Shown: positions 6,766 to 56,463 of the stretch, piece after piece | Numbering within the stretch: position 1 is the first letter of the stretch | Layout of the letters: each line of letters opens with the position of its first letter | Notes under the pieces: model-generated | What the model saw: the letters and a program-made list of their open reading frames with translations, nothing else | What the model was told of the DNA's origin: nothing | The model's database searches: none | Position numbers and translations under genes: made by a program | NCBI GenBank assembly: GCA_951406725.2 | Contig: OX597824.1 | Location: 25,420,001 to 25,484,000, forward strand | From: Octopus vulgaris | Taxonomy: Eukaryota | Direction of reading: 5' to 3' | DNA length: 64,000 nucleotides

Positions 6766-8433
6766 TTATTTTGTTATTTCAAAACAATGACTGGTTTTCA
6801 TTTCAAATTTCTCTGGCAGAAAAAGCATATTTTCCAGTTCTTCATGGTTATCGTACGTATATTTCCTTTCATTTCTTGTATAGAATGGTATTTTCAATAG
6901 TGGGTTATTTTCTTTAGCTCCATAGTCAAAATGGGCTGTGCAGATCACGTCTGTCGTCTTGACTATATCCGGGTCTGATCCTTGGTCTCTGCTGTTTATT
7001 ATTGTTTGGATGGTACCCTTGATTGTGCCCTCGATATTGCTCTGCATTTTGCTCTCCGGTGTGCCCAATATTTTACCCTTGATTGTGCCCTCGATATTGC
7101 TCTGCATTTTGCTCTCCGATGTGCTCAATATTTTAACATTGATTTTGCCCTCGATCTTTTTTTTTATTCCCGATGTCTCCGAGATTGTACCATTGATTCT
7201 GCCCTGGATATTGCCCTGCATTTCGCTCTCCGAGGTGTACAAGATTTTAGCATATATCTCTGCATTTTGCTCTTCGGTGATATCTCTCTGCATTTTGCTC
7301 TCCGGTGTGTCCAAGGTTTTATCATTGATAGTGACCTTCATCTTTTTCAGGACTGCAACGTCATCTCCTGTACCCTCAATTGGGTACAAGATATTTCCCT
7401 CCGTATCTCCGAGTTCGAATATGCCCGTTACTGTGCCCGTGAATGTGCCCTTGATTTTGTCTGTGACGGTCCCTTTGTATTTAAAAGACCGGTTGATTAT
7501 ATCCTTCAGGGCGTCTTTGAGATCTTGATTGCCCTCACTATTTAATATCTCCTCCAAAATACTATCTGTAAAATAAGTAAATTCCTCCATATCTTTGACC
7601 CTATCGAAAATTTTCAGTTTTTTATGTGCGGATTTCAAAACATCGCCAAGTAGTTTATTAAGCAGGAGAACAGTTTTGTGTTGGTAAGCCGTGTTATGTA
7701 GTCGATATCGTGAATAAAACATATCATAGAAATTTTTAAGCGTTTTGTCTCTGTAGCATATTTCACCACCTATTACTTTGGACATTTTCATCATTCTTTC
7801 GTGATCAAAGGATGTTCCAATGCCAAGAAAATGGGAATCTCTGGCCAGGTAATCCCATTTATCAACGTCGATGTTATAGTCTGCATTGTTGACGATTTGG
7901 TAAAAAAATTTTTTTCTGTCAGGTTTTTCTGGTTTACCAGTAATGAGATCTTTTATGAAACCAATTTCACCAGACTTAAGTTCTCCTTCAAAATGTTGGT
8001 TCATTTCAAAAAGATGCTCTAACATTTCACATGATACATCTTCATGTTCCCACTTTTTACCTCCATTTTCCTTGCGATACTCGTTGATAATTTCTTGAAA
8101 GGCATGAGAAAAAGGCGCATGTCCTAAATCATGACACAAACCAGCGATTTCAACACACAGTATATCTCGATCAGATATTTCCAGACCGGAATCTTGCTGC
8201 TTAAGATGGCGAATCATTTTCCCAGCTAGATGACATGTTCCCAGACAATGCTCAAATCTATTATGTGAAGCTGATGGATAAACGTAATAACACAAACCTA
8301 GTTGTTTGATATTACGTAATCTCTGAAATTGTACTGTATTAATAATTTTAACACAGAGTGGTGAAAATTGCATGGATCCATGAATAGCGTCCTGAAAAAC
8401 CTGATCCGGACGTGTATCGTTTCCGTTAGCCAT
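6766..8433 (-). CDS. SAMHD1: SAMHD1-like HD-domain dNTP triphosphohydrolase, copy 1 (intact, 555 aa, intronless, no SAM domain, repetitive insert)
   Basis: Motifs DAIHG, QFQRLRNIKQLG, HNRFEHCLG, LCHDLGH.PFSH, WEHE, IDVDKWDYLARD, AYQHK, FDYG.KENNP and LPEKF are colinear with SAMHD1. An in-frame TAA lies 10 codons upstream of the ATG. The symbol denotes the family, not proven orthology. Confidence 0.95.
   Translation of the reverse strand: MANGNDTRPDQVFQDAIHGSMQFSPLCVKIINTVQFQRLRNIKQLGLCYYVYPSASHNRFEHCLGTCHLAGKMIRHLKQQDSGLEISDRDILCVEIAGLCHDLGHAPFSHAFQEIINEYRKENGGKKWEHEDVSCEMLEHLFEMNQHFEGELKSGEIGFIKDLITGKPEKPDRKKFFYQIVNNADYNIDVDKWDYLARDSHFLGIGTSFDHERMMKMSKVIGGEICYRDKTLKNFYDMFYSRYRLHNTAYQHKTVLLLNKLLGDVLKSAHKKLKIFDRVKDMEEFTYFTDSILEEILNSEGNQDLKDALKDIINRSFKYKGTVTDKIKGTFTGTVTGIFELGDTEGNILYPIEGTGDDVAVLKKMKVTINDKTLDTPESKMQRDITEEQNAEIYAKILYTSESEMQGNIQGRINGTISETSGIKKKIEGKINVKILSTSESKMQSNIEGTIKGKILGTPESKMQSNIEGTIKGTIQTIINSRDQGSDPDIVKTTDVICTAHFDYGAKENNPLLKIPFYTRNERKYTYDNHEELENMLFLPEKFEMKTSHCFEITK
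7010..7470 (-). repeat. Coding repeat insert: 60-bp (20-aa) units ESKMQSNIEG(T/K)I(K/N)GKIL(G/S)T plus degenerate upstream units
   Basis: gattgtgccctcgatattgctctgcattttgctctcc repeats at 7021 and 7081. Related ESKMQ/ESEMQ units lie at ~7220 and ~7295. There are two terminal units in copies 1-4 and three in copy 5. Confidence 0.92.
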
Positions 8434-8721
8434 TATAAAATTGTTAAGAATATATCTAACTTACATTCACTTTGTCGTTTATGTTGCTGGTGGTCGTTTC
8501 GTTGCTGTTGTGTTTGTTAGTTTCGTAATGTGGAGTAGAAATATAAATTATCCAAATATGTCCAGTTGAATATTTCTAACATTTGATTTGAAATGATCTC
8601 AGTCGCATTGGCATGAAATATCTGGTGTTTCAAATAATATAAGCGATCAGTAAGTGTCTGCGTGGTTGGTAGAAAGAACACGAAATGAACTATGTTGTTT
8701 TATGAAAAATCAGCTGACGAC

Positions 8722-16844: not shown

Positions 16845-18360
16845 CCTAAAATGTCGTCACGTTACTGCCTCCCTATGCGGCACGATGTTGTCACTAAAAC
16901 AATTTATTTGTATCGGAGACCGAGAACACCGCTCTAAGAGACGGTGAGGCAGTGACAGGAGCAAAACTCAAATAAGAAAAGTCAATGGGTCTGCATCTAG
17001 ACAGGTAGAAAGGCAGACTCATGCCATCCAACATCGTGAGGTGTTGGACAGACAGACCATTTAAATTGCGCGGAGTCTAGTTTCGCCCAGACTTCTTAGT
17101 AGAAAAGAACTACTACGATATAATGAGCAAGGTAACTGTCTCATACAAAAATGGGCCAAGAGGAAACTGTCGCCGAAGGGTCACACAGAGGTGGAGAACG
17201 CCATCATTATGGTTCTCTGTCGTTGTCATCTGACTGTCGTAACTTGCTCACTTTTGACGAGGTTGGAACATCAGTGAAAAAGACGCTTCACTGGTCTGCT
17301 GCCAACACTTGCTACGTAAAACTGAATATACCGTGACCTGTATTGTGCATACATTTGCTGAATTTACATAATCTCTAGCGAATCGTTGGTAGTGAAGAGA
17401 TAAAGTTGCCGTTTGTCAGACACGACTTTTCTATGCTTATCTCTTTAACAGAGCTGTTGGGGAGCTTAGCCTCTTGACTGTCGTCAGGCGCTCACGGCAC
17501 GCTACCTGCCGGACAATGCGGTTGGCTGAAATTCTACATTGGCGTTCTAAAGAAGATTAGTGGCGGGTAGAAGAGACGACGATTAGCAAAAATTTGGGCG
17601 TCACAGAAAACCAACTAAGTTTATCTTGAAGAATTCCCGTTCGAGATGCATGAAGAACGACGAAACGGTTCTACATGCACTTGCCCGAGCTATGTCAAAC
17701 AGCACCTGCCACCTGTCGGTCGATTCCGGCCATCATCTCGCTACTGAGTCCTTTGTGAAAAGCTCATCACCACCTCCTTTAGCTGAGAAGAGTGGTGATG
17801 GCGAAAAGGATTGTGGGGAGAATATAATCGTAAGTGTTGAGGACAGGGAGTTTTCACCTTTAGCTAGATTCTTGTCAGTGAGGGCGCGTGGCTTAGTGGT
17901 TAGGGCATTCGGCTCATGATCGTAAGGTTGTGAGTTCGATTCCCGGCGACGCGTTGTGTCCTTGAGCAAGACACTTTATTTCACGCTGCTCCAGTCCACT
18001 CAGCTGGCAAAAATGAGTTGTACTTGTATTTCAAAGGGTCAGCCTTGTCACTCTCTGTGTCACGCTGATTATCCTCGAGAACTACGTTAAGGGTACACGT
18101 GTCTGTGGAATGCTCAGCCATTTGCACGTTAATTTCACGAGCAAGCTGTTCCGTTGATTCGGATCAGCTGGGACCCTCGTCGTCGTAACCGGCGGAGTCT
18201 TTTTTTTTTTTAAGATTCTTGTCAACTTTTTCAAGTTTCACTTGTAAAGGTGTGAGGATGGAAATGGACGTACTGATTTCAAGTAAGTTCGTTCAAAAGT
18301 TGATGAGGATTGTGGGCATGGTCCGAGTAAACGGGCCTCTGCTAAGAATGTGCCATTAGA
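16845..18360 (+). mobile_element. Degenerate L1/Tx1-type LINE ORF2 fragment A, with a SINE at 17878-18212
   Basis: Broken-frame translation gives EAVTGAKLK*EKSMGLHL, WTDRPFKLRGV*FRPD..VEKN, SRCMKNDETVLHAL and FFKFHL, homologous to fragment B. Confidence 0.75.
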
Positions 18361-18539
18361 ATCGAAGCTAAAAAGCTAGTTGGGGGCACTTGCCTTAGTG
18401 GGCAGGGTGACTGTTCTTTTGTGGGGTTTCCACGGATGGCACTTGCAAGTCTCCTCTCAACTAGGAAACTTTCATTGTTTAAAATGTTATTGTTGTTGCT
18501 TACTTTTTGTCTACATGTAGAATCCGACTTCTGTTTTTG

Positions 18540-19880
18540 TAAGGTTGTCCTGGAAATGTCCTCGTTGCTGTATGTTCCCTGGTGTACTGAATTTTGTACC
18601 ACTACTGCAGATACAAGAGCTATTGGATGGAGATAACCCGCACGAATTGGGAAATAAAAGACTCGTGTCGGCGTACAGGGATGATGTCACATCCATAGGA
18701 TCAGACACAAAGCACATCGAGCTGATTGTTACTGCTCTAAAGGACAACGAGACTGTGTAAAGAGCAAAATTTAACCATGAAAAGTCTTCGGGCCTACAAC
18801 TCAACACTTGGTGGGACAGTACCAACGGCATTCGGGGCCACTGGACGCCCTGGTTAAATTGCTCGCAGCTTAGTCTGGTCCATATCTCCAGCTAGAGAAG
18901 AACTGGGACCAGGTGACGAGCAGGAGAGCCAATCTCACCCAGAAATGAACCGCGAGAAAAAGCTATTCCCGAAAGATCGAGCAAAGGCGGAAAACGTTTA
19001 CATCTCATCCATAATATATTTCCGCTTGACTGTCGTTCCACACCAGCTGACAGATCACCGGACTGGCATAGCCACTCTTCCGCTTTCTGTGGAAGAGACG
19101 TGTCCCTAGTTAGCCACTGCACTTCATGTCAACATCTGTTGCATGTAGATGTGCGCATGCTGTGGATGGTGATACGCAGACATGCGCTGAGGTTATGATA
19201 TACCCAACGTTTCCTTGGTGAGGAGCAGATGTGGTCGGCGTTTATGAAGTCCTGTTTTCAAACCACTTATCTTTCCGACTGAGCAGCAGTCCTAGATTAA
19301 GCATCGGTCAAGGTAGGATGCCTGAAACCTCAAGTGTTGTCAGGTACTGAAAACCCTCTGCTAGTCAGGCAATATTGTTGGTATAATTTCTACATTGGTG
19401 TTCGGTAGAGAGTTAATGGATAGCAAAGGTAATGACATTCTAGGGAAGATTTTGGGCATCGATGAAGATCAGTTGGTTAGCTCTTTCCAGAGGACTCGGA
19501 AATCTCTTGCCTGGTAAGACTACCAGTATTATCAGTTCGAGATAATCTCGCCTGACAGTCGGGTTTGGCTGAGAAGCGCGCCGAGTGATGAAACTGTTCT
19601 ACATGCACTCGTCCAGGGTCTGAGCGTTTCTGATTTGTAGAATTATGTCAAACTTCCTGTCGTGTGTAGAATGTATCCATCTACGATCGGAGTCCATTCG
19701 TTTGGCTGCGGATGCTAGGCAGTGTTTATCTGTTTGATGGCCATTGCGAAAGAGGTTGTTTACTGGACCATTCTGAAACAGCTGAAGTTGCATACTTTCC
19801 TCAGTGTCTTGGCCTTCAAGAAAATCAACAGGAGATGCAAACTCTGCTCCGAGGAATCCCTGTTTATTTAAGGAGATCAT
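18540..19880 (+). mobile_element. LINE ORF2 fragment B, unit 2 copy
   Basis: Near-identical to 865-2200. Confidence 0.8.
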
Positions 19881-22515: not shown

Positions 22516-22517
<2 letters not shown>

Positions 22518-23363
22518 CATGTACATTGTTTTGTCTATCATGTACATTGTTTTGTCTATCATGTACATTGTTTTGTCTATCATGTACATTGTTTTGTCTA
22601 TCATGTACATTGTTTTGTAAATCATGTACATTGTTTTGTAATTATCATGTACATTGTTTTGTAATTATCATGTACATTGTTTTGTCTTTATCATGTACAT
22701 TGTTTTGTCTTTATCATGTACATTGTTTTGTCTTTATCATGTACATTGTTTTGTCTTTATCATGTACATTGTTTTGTCTTTATCATGTACATTGTTTTGT
22801 AAATCATGTACATTGTTTTGTCTTTATCATGTACATTGTTTTGTCTTTATCATGTACTTTGTTTTGTCTTTATCATGTACATTGTTTTGTCTTGGTATAA
22901 AAGATGGGCTACAGCAAATATTCTGCTCAATACCACAGATTTGCTTGTCAGTTGTTTGACCTTAACCAGTTGAGCATGTCCCTTCGTGGCTGACAATATG
23001 TGCATCTCTGATCACAAGCAGAAGTAGTGGGGGAGCATCATAGCCATGTGTTGAGAGGGATTCTTTGGGGTTTGAATAGTTCACCTCTGGAAACATGGGT
23101 GGTTCTTTCAACATCCTTAAACAACCCTTATTCAGGGACCGTTTGAGCGGGATGGGCTACTCAATCTGAAGAAAATTCTAACTGGGCCCCACCTGCAAGG
23201 TCATGTGCTGTTTATCTTGATATGAGATCACCATGTCGCGCACATATGGTTGTGATGCATGTGCCTGGTGTACCTTTATCAGACGGGTAGTCATGATGGG
23301 TATATTGGGCTTCGTATATTTTACCCCAGTGTCACTTTGATGGCATGCACTGCTCTCTCACTC
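22516..23363 (+). mobile_element. Unit-2-specific retroelement-like insertion in the (AAT)n tract, headed by 17 tandem 21-23-bp repeats
   Basis: Absent at the equivalent (AAT)n in units 1, 4 and 5. atcatgtacattgttttgt(ct/aa/cttt) x17 at 22516-22893, then ~470 bp of unique sequence running into (AAT)n. Confidence 0.8.
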
Positions 23364-23944: not shown

Positions 23945-24194
23945 CATACATACACATACACATATGACTCAATGAGAGGTTATAATTTTTGAATGTAAGA
24001 AATACGCGTTAAAAATTAAAGAAATCGAAGACATTTATTTGGTAAACAAAGAATATTTCTTATAGAAAAGTAAAAAAAAAAGTTAAATTAGGAAAAAAAT
24101 TGTTGTTCGCATATTATTTTTAGTCTTTGAAGTTTGAAATAGTTTCAATATATTTAAAAAAATTTTAATTCTTACCAAATTTTAAGTAAAGAAT

Positions 24195-24538
24195 AAATGT
24201 TTCTCATATGTTTCGAACGTGACTCAATGGGAGGATTCAATTTAGAAGTAAGGAAATATATGTTTATTTTTTTTCAAAAATGTTGAGAGTTTCTTAAAAG
24301 TAAAAATTTCCCATCAAAAAGTTCTTTTAATTTAGATAGAGAATATTGTCCATTTAGTATCAATCTAAATGTTTCTCATATGTTTCGAACGTGACTCAAT
24401 GGGAGGATTCAATTTAGAAGTAAGGAAATATATGTTTATTTTTTTTCAAAAATGTTGAGAGTTTCTTAAAAGTAAATTTTTCCCATCAAAAAGTTCTTTT
24501 AATTTAGATAGAGAATATTGTCCATTTAGTATCAATCT
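24195..24538. repeat. 172-bp tandem duplication in the 3' flank of copy 2
   Basis: aaatgtttctcatatgtttcgaacgtgactc starts at 24195 and 24367; single copy in units 1, 4 and 5. Confidence 0.9.
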
Positions 24539-24639: not shown

Positions 24640-26371
24640 TCAATCTGATTTTTTGTTATTGATTTTTCTCTTGAATGTTGTCTTCGTTGTTTTTCTTTTG
24701 TTTTCCTTAATTATTTTGTTTATTTCAAAACAATGACTGGTTTTCATTTCAAATTTCTCTGGCAGAAAAAGCATATTTTCCAGTTCTTCATGGTTATCGT
24801 ACGTATATTTCCTTTCATTTCTTGTATAGAATGGTATGTTCAATAGTGGGTTATTTTCTTTAGCTCCATAGTCAAAATGGGCTGTGCAGATCACGTCTGT
24901 CGTCTTGACTATATCCGGGTCTGATCCTTGGTCTCTGCTGTTTATTATTGTTTGGATGGTACCCTTGATTGTGCCCTCGATATTGCTCTGCATTTTGCTC
25001 TCCGATGTGCCCAATATTTTACCATTGATTTTGCCCTCGATATTGCTCTGCATTTTGCTCTCCGGTGGGCTCAATATTTTACCATTGATTTTGCCCTCGA
25101 TCTTTTTTATTCCCGATGTCTCCGAGATTGTACCATTGATTCTGCCCTGGATATTGCCCTGCATTTCGCTCTCCGAGGTGTACAAGATTTTAGCATATAT
25201 CTCTGCATTTTGCTCTTCGGTGATATCTCTCTGCATTTTGCTCTCCGGTGTGTCCAAGGTTTTATCATTGATAGTGACCTTCATCTTTTTCAGGACTGCA
25301 ACGTCATCTCCTGTACCCTCAATTGGGTACAAGATATTTCCCTCCGTATCTCCGAGTTCGAATATGCCCGTTACTGTGCCCGTGAATGTGCCCTTGATTG
25401 TGTCTGTGACGGTCCCTTTGTATTTAAAAGACCGGTTGATTATAGCCTCCAGGGCGTCTTTGAGATGTTGATTGCCCTTATTCTTTAATATCTCCTCCAA
25501 AATACTATCTGTAAAATAAGTAAATTCCTCCATATCTTTGACCCTTTCGAAAATTTTCAGGTGTTCATCTGCGGATGTCAAAGCCTCGCCAAGTAGTTTA
25601 TTAAGCAGGAGAACAGTTTTGTGTTGGTAAGCCGTGTTATGTAGTCGATATCGTGAATAAAACATATCATAGAAATTTTTAAGCGTTTTGTCTCTGTAGC
25701 ATATTTCACCATCTATTACTTTGGACATTTTCATCATTCTTTCGTGATCAAAGGATGTTCCAATGCCAAGAAAATGGGAATCTCTGGCCAGGTAATCCCA
25801 TTTATCAACGTCGATGTTATAGTCTGCATTGTTGACGATTTGGTAAAGAAATTTTTTGTCTGTGAGATATTTCTGGTTTACCAGTAATGAGATCTTTTAT
25901 GAAATCAATTTCATTACGCTCAACTTTAATATCTTCGTTCTCTTTAAAAAGATGCTCCAACATTTCACATGATGCATCTTCATGTTTCCACTTTTTACCT
26001 CCAGCTTTCTTGGGATACTCGTTGATAATTTCTTGAAAGGCATGAGAAAAAGGCGCATGTCCTAAATCATGACACAAACCAGCGATTTCAACACACAGTA
26101 TATCTCGATCAGATATTTCCAGACGGGAATCTTGCTGCTTAAGATGGCGAATCATTTTCCCAGCTAGATGACATGTTCCCAGACAATGCTCAAATCTATT
26201 ATGTGAAGCTGATGGATAAACGTAATAACACAAACCTAGTTGTTTGATATTACGTAATCTCTGAAATTGTACTGTATTAATAATTTTAACACAGAGTGGT
26301 GAAAATTGCATGGATCCATGAATAGCGTCCTGAAAAACCTGATCCGGACGTGTATCGTTTGTGTTAGCCAT
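24640..26371 (-). pseudogene. SAMHD1: SAMHD1-like copy 2; one +1 frameshift in a T6 run (25852-25857); 576 aa if repaired
   Basis: ORFs 25817..26371 and 24640..25737 are colinear with copy 1. The segment is 1 nt longer than copy 3 at agaaattttttgtctg. It could be an intact gene with a homopolymer sequencing error. Confidence 0.85.
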
Positions 26372-36380: not shown

Positions 36381-36559
36381 AATCGAAGCTAAAAAGCTAG
36401 TTGGGGGCACTTGCCTTAGTGGGCAGGGTGACTGTTCTTTTGTGGGGTTTCCACGGATGGCACTTGCAAGTCTCCTCTCAACTAGGAAACTTTCATTGTT
36501 TAAAATGTTATTGTTGTTGCTTACTTTTTGTCTACATGTAGAATCCGACTTCTGTTTTT

Positions 36560-37900
36560 GTAAGGTTGTCCTGGAAACGTCCTCGTTGCTGTATGTTCCC
36601 TGGTGTACTGAATTTTGTACCACTACTGCAGATACAAGAGCTATTGGATGGAGATAACCCGCACGAATTGGGAGATAAAAGACTCGTGTCGGCGTACAGG
36701 GATGATGTCACATCCATAGGATCAGACACAAAGCACATCGAGCTGATTGTTACTGCTCTAAAGGACAACGAGACTGTGTAAAGAGCAAAATTTAACCATG
36801 AAAAGTCTTCGGGCCTACAACTCAACACTTGGTGGGACAGTACCAACGGCATTCGGGGCCACTGGACGCCCTGGTTAAATTGCTCGCAGCTTAGTCTGGT
36901 CCATATCTCCAGCTAGAGAAGAACTGGGACCAGGTGACGAGCAGGAGAGCCAATCTCACCCAGAAATGAACCGAGAAAAAGCTATTCCCGAAAGATCGAG
37001 CAAAGGCGGAAAACGTTTACATCTCATCCATAATATATTTCCGCTTGACTGTCGTTCCACACCAGCTGACAGATCACCGGACTGGCATAGCCACTCTTCC
37101 GCTTTCTGTGGAAGAGACGTGTCCCTAGTTAGCCACTGCACTTCATGTCAACATCTGTTGCATGTAGATGTGCGCATGCTGTGGATGGTGATACGCAGAC
37201 ATGCGCTGAGGTTATGATATACCCAACGTTTCCTTGGTGAGGAGCAGATGTGGTCGGCGTTTATGAAGTCCTGTTTTCAAACCACTTATCTTTCCGACTG
37301 AGCAGCAGTCCTAGATTAAGCATCGGTCAAGGTAGGATGCCTGAAACCTCAAGTGTTGTCAGGTACTGAAAACCCTCTGCTAGTCAGGCAATATTGTTGG
37401 TATAATTTCTACATTGGTGTTCGGTAGAGAGTTAATGGATAGCAAAGGTAATGACATTCTAGGGAAGATTTTGGGCATCGATGAAGATCAGTTGGTTAGC
37501 TCTTTCCAGAGGACTCGGAAATCTCTTGCCTGGTAAGACTACCAGTATTATCAGTTCGAGATAATCTCGCCTGACAGTCGGGTTTGGCTGAGAAGCGCGC
37601 CGAGTGATGAAACTGTTCTACATGCACTCGTCCAGGGTCTGAGCGTTTCTGATTTGTAGAATTATGTCAAACTTCCTGTCGTGTGTAGAATGTATCCATC
37701 TACGATCGGAGTCCATTCGTTTGGCTGCGGATGCTAGGCAGTGTTTATCTGTTTGATGGCCATTGCGAAAGAGGTTGTTTACTGGACCATTCTGAAACAG
37801 CTGAAGTTGCATACTTTCCTCAGTGTCTAGGCCTTCAAGAAAATCAACAGGAGATGCAAACTCTGCTCCGAGGAATCCCTGTTTATTTAAGGAGATCATT
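36560..37900 (+). mobile_element. LINE ORF2 fragment B, unit 3 copy
   Basis: Near-identical to 865-2200. Confidence 0.8.
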
Positions 37901-39868: not shown

Positions 39869-40351
39869 AATAAAACAAACCTGTTTTTGTAATCCAGATT
39901 TTCCATCCCATCTAAGCACAGGAATAAAACATTGGATTGAAAGAACTGAATAGTGGTATAAATATCACCAGAATTATTTCTTCTTCCTCTTTTTCTTCTT
40001 TCTTCCCTTCTCCAACGACACCCCTTCCAGATTCACAGGCGCCCACACACACATACCTTCACAAAACAATAATAAAAAGAAATCCAGATAATTCTTTTTT
40101 GAAATTGCCAATTTCTAAAAACCAAAAATCATTTACAGTTGCAAAAATATAAACAAAAGTGGCACTCTAGAACATTACTAAAAGCCAATGACTGGTTACT
40201 CTTAACAACTTGACCATTCCTCCCTAACACTCCTTTCAGATACAAAGACACAAACACACGCACCACACACGCGCGCACATAAACACACACACACTCTCTC
40301 TCTCTCTCTCACAAGACAATGATAAAAAGGAAATGCAATTTATGATCGTCT
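39242..40351. mobile_element. Foldback element, right end deleted and fused to SAMHD1-like copy 3
   Basis: The left terminus and both inner arms are present; junction at cgtct 40347-40351. Confidence 0.85.
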
Positions 40352-54736: not shown

Positions 54737-56463
54737 TTATTTTGTTATTTCAAAACAATGACTGGTTTTCATTTCAAATTTCTCTGGCAGAAAAAGCATA
54801 TTTTCCAGTTCTTCATGGTTATCGTACGTATATTTCCTTTCATTTCTTGTATAGAATGGTATTTTCAATAGTGGGTTATTTTCTTTAGCTCCATAGTCAA
54901 AACGGGCTATGCAGATCACGTCTGTCTTCTTGACTATATCCGGGTCTGATCCTTGGTCTCTGCTGTTTATTATTTTTTGGATGGTACCCTTGATTGTGCC
55001 CTCGATATTGCTCTGCATTTTGCTCTCCGATGTGCCCAATATTTTACCATTGATTTTGCCCTCGATATTGCTCTGCATTTTGCTCTCCGATGTGCCCAAT
55101 ATTTTACCCTTGATTGTGCCCTCGATATTGCTCTGCATTTTGCTCTCCGATGTGCTCAATATTTTAACATTGATTTTGCCCTCGATCTTTTTTTTATTCC
55201 CGATGTCTCCGAGATTGTACCATTGATTCTGCCCTGGATATTGCCCTGCATTTCGCTCTCCGAGGTGTACAAGATTTTAGCATCTATCTCTGCATTTTGC
55301 TCTTCGGTGATATCTCTCTGCATTTTGCTCTCCGGTGTGTCCAAGGTTTTATCATTGATAGTGACCTTCATCTTTTTCAGGACTGCAACGTCATCTCCTG
55401 TACCCTCAATTGGGTACAAGATATTTCCCTCCGTATCTCCGAGTTCGAATATGCCCGTTACTGTGCCCGTGAATGTGCCCTTGATTTTGTCTGTGACGGT
55501 CCCTTTGTATTTAAAAGACCGTTTGATTATATCCTTCAGGGCGTCTTTGAGATCTTGATTGCCCTTACTATTTAATATCTCCTCCAAAATACTATCTGTA
55601 AAATAAGTAAATTCCTCCATTTTTTTGACCCTTTCGAAAATTTCCAGTTTTTTATGTGCGGATTTCAAAACATCGCCAAGTAGTTTATTAAGCAGGAGAA
55701 CAGTTTTGTGTTGGTAAGCCGTGTTATGTAGTCGATATCGTGAATAAAACATATCATAGAAATTTTTAAGCGTTTTGTCTCTGTAGCATATTTGATCACT
55801 TATTACTTTGGACATTTTCATCATTCTTTCGTGATCAAAGGATGTTCCAATGCCAAGAAAATGGGAATCTCTGGCCAGGTAATCCCATTTATCAACGTCG
55901 ATGTTATAGTCTGCATTGTTGACGATTTGGTAAAAAAATTTTTTTCTCTCAGATTTTTCTGGTTTACCAGTAATGAGATCTTTTATGAAATCAATTTCAC
56001 CAGACTTAAGTTCTCCTTCAATATGTTTGTTCTTTTTAAAAAGATGCTGCAACATTTTACATGATGCATCTTCATGTTCCCACTTTTTACCTCCAGTTTC
56101 CTTGCGATACTCGTTGATAATTTCTTGAAAGGCATGAGAAAAAGGCGCATGTCCTAAATCATGACACAAACCAGCGATTTCAACACACAGTATATCTCGA
56201 TCAGATATTTCCAGACCGGAATCTTGCTGCTTAAGATGGCGAATCATTTTCCCAGCTAGATGACATGTTCCCAGACAATGCTCAAATCTATTATGTGAAG
56301 CTGATGGATAAACGTAATAACACAAACCTAGTTGTTTGATATTACGTAATCTCTGAAATTGTACTGTATTAATAATTTTAACACAGAGTGGTGAAAATTG
56401 CATGGATCCATGAATAGCGTCCTGAAAAACCTGATCCGGACGTGTATCGTTTCCGTTAGCCAT
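54737..56463 (-). pseudogene. SAMHD1: SAMHD1-like copy 5; T8 run at 55188-55195 (T9 in copy 1, T6 in copies 2-4) shifts the frame; 575 aa if repaired, with one extra 20-aa repeat
   Basis: ORFs 55156..56463 and 54737..55159. Length 1727 = 1668 + 60 - 1 relative to copy 1. Confidence 0.85.

Follow-up and report, generated by a model that had tools for sequence, protein, structure and literature searches.

The window analysed, 64,000 nt of the Octopus vulgaris contig OX597824.1, carries five SAMHD1-like genes, C1 to C5, all on the minus strand, intronless and without a SAM domain. They start at positions 8433, 26371, 41829, 49199 and 56463 and belong to a tandem segmental duplication that occupies the whole window (1-64000, unstranded), with copy spacings of 17938, 15458, 7370 and 7264 bp and long blocks that are 94.5-99.2% identical, microsatellites included. 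C1 (6766-8433) is an intact single-ORF gene of 555 aa, identified from its ORF and its Pfam, PDB and Foldseek matches, and is the only gene unbroken as assembled. The other four of the five copies are broken: C2 (24640-26371) has gained a base within the A-run of codon 174 (near 25855) and its end is shifted, C3 (40309-41829) is cut near 40347, at about codon 494, where it meets spacer DNA, C4 (47530-49199) has a one-base insertion near codon 448, and C5 (54737-56463) has an A-run frameshift at codon 423 and one extra 60-bp repeat. The codon table of the five copies contains no internal nonsense substitution in codons 1-420. If the breaks in C2 to C5 are real, selection acted earlier or on other copies.

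The nearest database protein to C1 is labelled O. sinensis (98% identity), and we infer that the window is part of an O. vulgaris cluster of 15 gene models, CAI9729836 to 855. Genes of this cluster are already in databases as automatic annotations and have relatives in O. bimaculoides and Argonauta; among the best 150 matches of a 50%-representative search, all non-octopod proteins had at most 53% identity. Two database proteins are probably gene-model artefacts: P0125 (805 aa) merges sequence from C3 and C2 into one protein, and in P0126 a C3-type copy is linked with a protease-like tail. The spacers contain a GC-richer repeated segment with short ORFs at 667-1155, 18346-18891 and 36532-36852. 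One of these ORFs resembles a decayed retroelement fragment by eye and has no Pfam match; none of the seven spacer ORFs scanned had a Pfam match above the cut-off. Next to C2 and nowhere else, at 22516-22893 and 24194-24538, are a minisatellite with 17 copies of a 23-bp unit and a duplication of 172 bp.

The C1 protein matches Pfam HD (E 2e-12) and human/mouse SAMHD1 in the PDB (E 1e-75), and the best Foldseek matches of its structure model, in which pLDDT falls below 50 at residues 317-492, are SAMHD1 chains (E 2e-26, probability 1.00). Its alignment starts at human residue 116: the vertebrate-type SAM domain, whose loss is usual outside vertebrates, and the Vpx-bound termini are absent. The metal tetrad H167, H206, D207 and D311 is present together with H233, a magnesium ligand in the human enzyme (PMC7311409), as C1 H62, H101, D102, D191 and H130, and the metal-ligand codons are invariant in all five copies. 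The substrate and catalytic residues R164, H210, H215, K312, Y315, D319, R366, H370, Y374 and Q375 are likewise all present. D218, which supports H215 and is acidic (D or E) in all 100 of the distant homologues compared, is replaced by Q113 in C1. At GTP allosteric site 1, Q142, R145 and R451 are kept and K116Q and D137N are changed; at dNTP allosteric site 2 (N119, D330, R333, R352, K354, N358, H376 and K377), seven of eight residues are kept and the eighth is N119Q, as in the fungal enzyme.

The young copies thus carry K116Q, N119Q, D137N, D218Q and R372T, and the unchanged residue predominates among distant homologues at K116 (89/99), N119 (95/100) and D137 (99/101), as D or E does at position 218. 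In C1 the changed codons are codon 11 (8403) for K116Q, codon 32 (8340) for D137N and codon 113 (8097) for D218Q. D137N is found in every octopod row that covers the site, and position 218 is Q or E within the cluster. The canonical-like Argonauta protein P0049 also has D137N, which may mean that the specificity for the activator has changed across octopods. The human D137N enzyme is activated by XTP instead of GTP and is still active. Human D218A has a kcat about 40-fold lower, not zero (PMC7311409). Given these two human mutants, activity of the octopus copies is plausible and would probably be differently regulated; D137N, K116Q and D218Q suggest altered regulation and would change both activation and rate.

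The C-terminal lobe contains an insertion of about 170 aa (6949-7470, minus strand), with degenerate 60-bp (20-aa) repeats at 7014-7253. It is present only in the young copies and in P0002, and the number of 20-aa repeats varies among C5 and O. sinensis models. The repeat insertion had no Pfam match above the cut-off and no Atlas look-alike; its four homologues are all from octopus, and none was found outside four octopus clusters. It replaces the segment that in mammals holds the selected-site cluster 463-488.

Differences among the five copies are concentrated in a few segments, which we located in C1 (minus strand) from the codon table and the alignment to human SAMHD1, the human numbering being mapped by eye. 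The main hypervariable patch comprises codons 120-177 (7903-8076; about human 226-297) and encloses the invariant H130; its counterparts lie at 25846-26014 in C2, 41299-41472 in C3, 48675-48842 in C4 and 55933-56106 in C5. A variable hairpin turn occupies codons 222-224 (7762-7770; about human 341-348), and a second variable zone codons 264-281 and 298-314 (7492-7644; about human 388-415 and 432-450). The first-pass annotation, made from the letters of this DNA, had described one hypervariable patch between nearly identical flanks. The patch is real at 7903-8076, but variation also occurs at codons 222-224 and 264-326. Five different residues do precede the GGKK motif in the five copies (codon 123: N, A, D, V and T), and C1 and C2 do differ within codons 1-118 at codons 4 and 83 only, both changes altering the amino acid. 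The residue strings given for the copies agree with the codon table except for the C2 string ISHRQKF, which spans the one-base A-run insertion at codon 174 by which C2 is frameshifted as assembled. In C5, the three neighbouring codons 222-224 (55792-55800) have changed together and the resulting D-Q pair matches P0011/P0012, a possible micro-conversion.

The clustering is strong: 32 of the 61 variable nucleotide columns of codons 1-420 fall inside one 174-nt interval, a count reached in 0 of 20000 shuffles. None of the variable sites among the five copies is a catalytic residue. The non-coding DNA had been called nearly invariant. With microsatellites masked (31% of the window masked), this holds: 18 of 1699 columns vary in the unmasked 5' flank, pairs of copies differ there by 0.06-0.65%, and the flanks differ by about 0.5%. 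It does not hold for the flank microsatellites, which vary.

We then compared changing with silent substitutions, as minimum counts made without a tree. Codons 120-177 hold 36 changing against a single silent one (P 0.005 at kappa 1, 0.0006 at kappa 3), codons 222-224 hold 4 and 0, and codons 264-326 hold 19 and 1. Over codons 1-420, the whole-gene test by which we avoid picking the patch after the fact, there are 64 changing and 2 silent (P 2e-5 at kappa 1, 6e-7 at kappa 3), and codons 421-552 add 14 variable codons, all changing and none silent. In the patch, mean pairwise pN is 0.122 vs a pS of 0.013. At the flank rate, codons 1-420 would be expected to hold 2.8 silent and 10.4 changing sites; the observed silent count is close to this expectation, so silent sites behave neutrally, and changing sites exceed the flank rate six-fold overall and about 24-fold in the patch.

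A one-ratio codon model in which each of seven segments had its own tree gave an omega of about 10 (2dlnL 19.3, P 1e-5) on a grid of 3, 6, 10, 16 and 30, the segments having been chosen after the informative sites were seen. In IQ-TREE codon fits on single trees, the likelihoods also favour the free model. The excess persisted without the probably imported block 143-158 (49 changing vs 2 silent, P 4.6e-4) and without C2 and C4 (45 vs 2, P 0.001), the weakest subset being the patch alone in C1, C3 and C5 (22:1, P 0.06). Diversifying selection, as the first-pass annotation had proposed, is therefore supported: silent sites are not equally diverged, and dN/dS above 1 is robust to recombination in the tree-free counts, the segment-tree codon model and the subset removals. 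Editing- or DGR-like biased mutagenesis was rejected, as 22 of the 61 variable columns are A/G and 31 are two-state transversions. Silent-site constraint from an overlapping gene was rejected as well: besides C1, no ATG-started ORF of at least 100 aa runs across 7903-8076.

Every frameshift in the copies is the gain or loss of an A in or beside an A-run, as a sequencing or assembly artefact in a collapsed repeat would leave, and the C2 insertion is missing from the 3 indels listed across four other sequencing runs, whose contigs drop rare variants. As an account of the substitutions this reading is refuted and overall has almost no weight, since errors would not spare silent positions and patch types recur in the other runs and in O. 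sinensis proteins. We compared the contigs of these four runs, X12, X16, X13 and X5, over 7310-8480; the small-share insect-metagenome runs X19 and X20 are not among them. Over 158 bases, a contig of run X12 matches the C1 patch perfectly, and contigs of X16 and X5 carry the patch type with a six-base deletion. X5, which like X13 we guess to be an RNA run, has two patch types side by side, and one of its pieces shows 9 differences, the count found for C5. The C1 patch type is missing among the contigs of X16, X13 and X5, which we do not count as absence. This recurrence indicates that the substitutions are not assembly noise. One X5 contig also combines a C4-like patch end with C2-like codons 298-311, a combination absent from the window; since unitigs can join dominant variants, we take it as a weak hint. 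At the level of the family rather than of single paralogues, SAMHD1-like proteins are included in an O. vulgaris skin-mucus proteome (PMC11431876).

Selection had been set against gene conversion as an alternative in the first-pass annotation, an opposition that does not stand, as both occur. The way the copies split shifts along the gene, with C2 and C4 together at 144-155, C1 and C5 at 172-222, and C2 and C3 at 264-299; 172 of 465 informative site pairs are incompatible (Rm 7; clustering P 0.0007-0.002). Residues 128-178 of C4 are identical to the O. sinensis protein P0216 of an older subfamily, an exact run of 51 residues, whereas on either side only 39 of 44 and 68 of 86 residues are alike; residues 5-119 of C4 are an exact run shared with O. 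sinensis P0001. The K-K-A-G start of the C2 patch is also present in P0216. For residues 128-177, an AU test rejected a single clade of the 7 young rows (p 3.7e-6), which the flanks did not reject; it used 20 of the 24 aligned rows (C2, P0009, P0126 and P0049 left out) and a group named after the segment identities had been seen. In the flank tree the young copies form one side of a weakly supported branch (62/81). Several relatives of the six-base-deletion type belong to the older subfamily (P0007, P0012, P0215 and P0216), which makes import into C2 and C4 the likelier direction. With 48/50 residues identical, the C1 patch is closer to O. sinensis P0001 than to any neighbouring copy, and it is therefore likely that patch types are older than the species split or cross it. 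Judging from these sequence mosaics, conversion probably shuffles patch versions among copies and subfamilies.

Such tracts could in principle account for the patch without selection, its versions being neutral passengers brought in from older paralogues. The C2/C4 patch is essentially that of P0216/P0012, the C3 patch is 45/50 like P0011, the deletion type has the older relatives named above, and at 21 of 46 variable positions every state is present in older paralogues. Yet a 12% divergence predicts about 7-9 silent changes among the 37 and only 1 was seen, and codons 16-78 of one older-paralogue contig, which offer 44 silent sites, show at least 8 silent differences, although other pieces allow far fewer and these contig-based bounds on silent divergence are loose. 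In addition, 35 of the 104 residue states at the 46 variable positions are absent from the 12 older paralogues, so that new mutation contributes too. Since the excess remains at 49:2 and 45:2 after the removals and these 35 states are new, the selection signal is not explained away by import, and the neutral account, already weakened, is improbable. Altogether, positive selection combined with conversion is a well-supported and very probable description of the pattern.

The variable positions are less conserved than others among 101 distant homologues (0.50 vs 0.75), as are the variable segments (0.59 vs 0.71-0.81), the contrast inside the patch being weak (P 0.057). Charge changes at 38 of 48 variable residues, compared with 37-46% expected for single random changes, a figure that multi-state sites inflate. 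Along helix 129-144, six variable positions share one face, away from the hydrophobic side (P 0.009); the other two of the three helices tested had no one-face pattern (P 0.46 and 0.087). These charge changes and the one helix face lend indirect support to the charged surface that the first-pass annotation had suggested. Going by helix periodicity and conservation, the variable residues may be exposed and adjacent in space.

One rival explanation concerns subunit contacts. SAMHD1 is active as a tetramer, and the human counterpart of the variable position 298 (N/K) is Y432, which belongs to the dimer patch (PMC12042053). The copies could thus be diverging at their contacts to avoid or tune mixed tetramers, including those with catalytically dead paralogues; the HD site is lost in six older paralogues, in three species. 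However, there is almost no variation in residues 12-119 and 225-263, where the allosteric residues and most of the named interface residues lie, and low-conservation positions vary at 0 of 18 in residues 12-119 vs 14 of 26 in the patch, which leaves such insulation with a low probability. A homodimer prediction for residues 10-320 scored 0.25, below the 0.32 mark, gave no interface and carries no weight here.

Selection could instead act on biochemical function, that is on substrate, activator or nucleic-acid preference, if the patch lines the way to the active site. The patch holds H130 and follows H110, the cluster has fixed K116Q, N119Q, D137N and D218Q, all rare among distant homologues, and comparable human mutants swap GTP for XTP or lower kcat; the mammalian selected sites near T592 also affect catalysis (PMC6744909). 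But the pocket residues are all invariant among the five copies, and most of the changes swap charge and toggle repeatedly, as in the five states of codon 123, which would look more like escape than tuning. We regard this explanation as unlikely, if worth keeping in mind.

The lost HD sites belong to P0005, P0006, P0008, P0015, P0127 and P0128, older paralogues outside the window that read HN instead of HD, carry H215Y and have lost H233. Their frames have stayed open, the proteins being labelled O. vulgaris, O. sinensis and O. bimaculoides, and they are candidate decoy or regulatory pseudoenzymes. The array copies themselves might serve less as enzymes than as baits or sensors, the patch diversifying to bind more pathogen ligands and not to evade a single one: their catalytic helper is weakened (D218Q), dead paralogues are kept in three species, truncated copies retain an intact HD core, and the repertoire seems to differ between animals. 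Against such a receptor role, no signalling domain was found (Pfam gave HD only) and the metal site is complete in all five copies; we give it little credence.

The account that we favour is escape from an antagonist. SAMHD1 acts against DNA viruses, retroviruses and LINE-1, and a number of unrelated viral proteins attack it in turn (PMC7999308), which together with the charge toggling is why we name antagonist escape as the probable cause; charge toggling on the outer face would fit escape best. Primate SAMHD1 vs Vpx/Vpr had been offered as the parallel. It serves as an analogy, but Vpx binds residues 1-69 or 606-626 of primate SAMHD1 (PMC6744909), regions without an aligned counterpart in the octopus copies. 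A closer correspondence lies in the core, where the sites under selection in mammals are 256, 266, 280-284, 346, 395, 408 and 442 (PMC6744909). All 10 of the mammalian positively selected sites inside human 116-455 (PMC6744909, Table S3) fall in the four variable segments of octopus, which make up 127 of those 340 residues (P 4e-5, or 0.001 if 280-284 count once). Position by position, on the by-eye mapping, 5 of 6 sites overlap (P 0.01 vs low-conservation positions), and of the four firmest mappings three do (266, 408 and the 346 hairpin, not 442; P 0.08). As the variable segments are the least conserved, the overlap partly reflects tolerance.

Mammalian SAMHD1, in the data of Monit et al. 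(2019, PMC6744909) on which we draw, has the same fold and catalytic core, and selection there likewise spares catalytic and allosteric sites. In mammals, however, one orthologue is compared across species and the hotspots are the N- and C-terminal Vpx sites and the surroundings of T592, whereas in octopus paralogues diverge within one genome with a whole-gene omega greatly exceeding 1, the hotspot lies within the HD lobe of a protein with neither Vpx-bound ends nor a SAM domain, and patches are exchanged. Rhizophagus 9MR6 and C. elegans ZK177.8 (PMC12042053) resemble the octopus copies in having no SAM domain, five metal ligands and partly changed allosteric sites, but do not have the 170-aa repeat insertion. 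At AL1, where the octopus cluster has N and Q, Rhizophagus retains the aspartate and lysine and binds GTP, and the parts of PMC12042053 used here describe no paralogue array. We found no prior description of an octopus or invertebrate SAMHD1 expansion in the open literature, though a mention in the gene-family tables of genome supplements is possible; nor did the literature yield antiviral activity, induction by infection or a known antagonist for the octopus copies. Several SAMHD1-like proteins without a SAM match occur per species in fish, bivalves, tunicates and others (for example Myripristis, Mercenaria, Styela and Oryzias), and aquatic animals may commonly carry arrays resembling the octopus one.

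MHC class I, plant NLRs and TRIM5/APOBEC3-type expansions are immune families diversified by selection and gene conversion. Like the octopus array, they combine tandem copies, a homogenised framework and clustered changes common to paralogues. They are receptors or editors that vary a ligand-binding groove or a substrate loop, whereas the scaffold in this mollusc is a metabolic dNTP hydrolase.

We consider it reasonably probable that positive selection diversifies the outer face of the young octopod SAMHD1-like tandem copies against a pathogen antagonist, with gene conversion probably shuffling finished patches. By analogy with the family, the octopus enzyme would deplete dNTPs, and the selecting agent would be a DNA-synthesising virus or retroelement whose protein binds the variable face. 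Under concerted evolution core and flanks would stay alike, and each new patch version that evades the binder would be retained, so that one animal would hold several surfaces at once.

A wider reading, which we put forward tentatively and which may well prove wrong, makes octopus SAMHD1 a variable immune repertoire. Its copies, about 15-20 in number, some active, some weakened and some dead, would have an activation rewired away from GTP, and one outer face of the HD lobe would act as a cassette that conversion exchanges between subfamilies and that differs from animal to animal. If this were true, the mammalian sites 256-284, 346, 395-408 and 442, lying in the same segments, would mark a face targeted by an unrecognised class of antagonists from molluscs to mammals. 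How far the conflict between viruses and SAMHD1 reaches other taxa is a question posed by Monit et al. (PMC6744909), and this locus offers a very strong selection signal from an invertebrate within one genome. It also points to a SAMHD1 surface whose selected sites in mammals lack a named driver in the literature surveyed. Since its near-isogenic natural variants differ almost only in the candidate surface, their partners, activity and activator preference can be compared directly, and the array points to an unstudied arm of cephalopod innate immunity.
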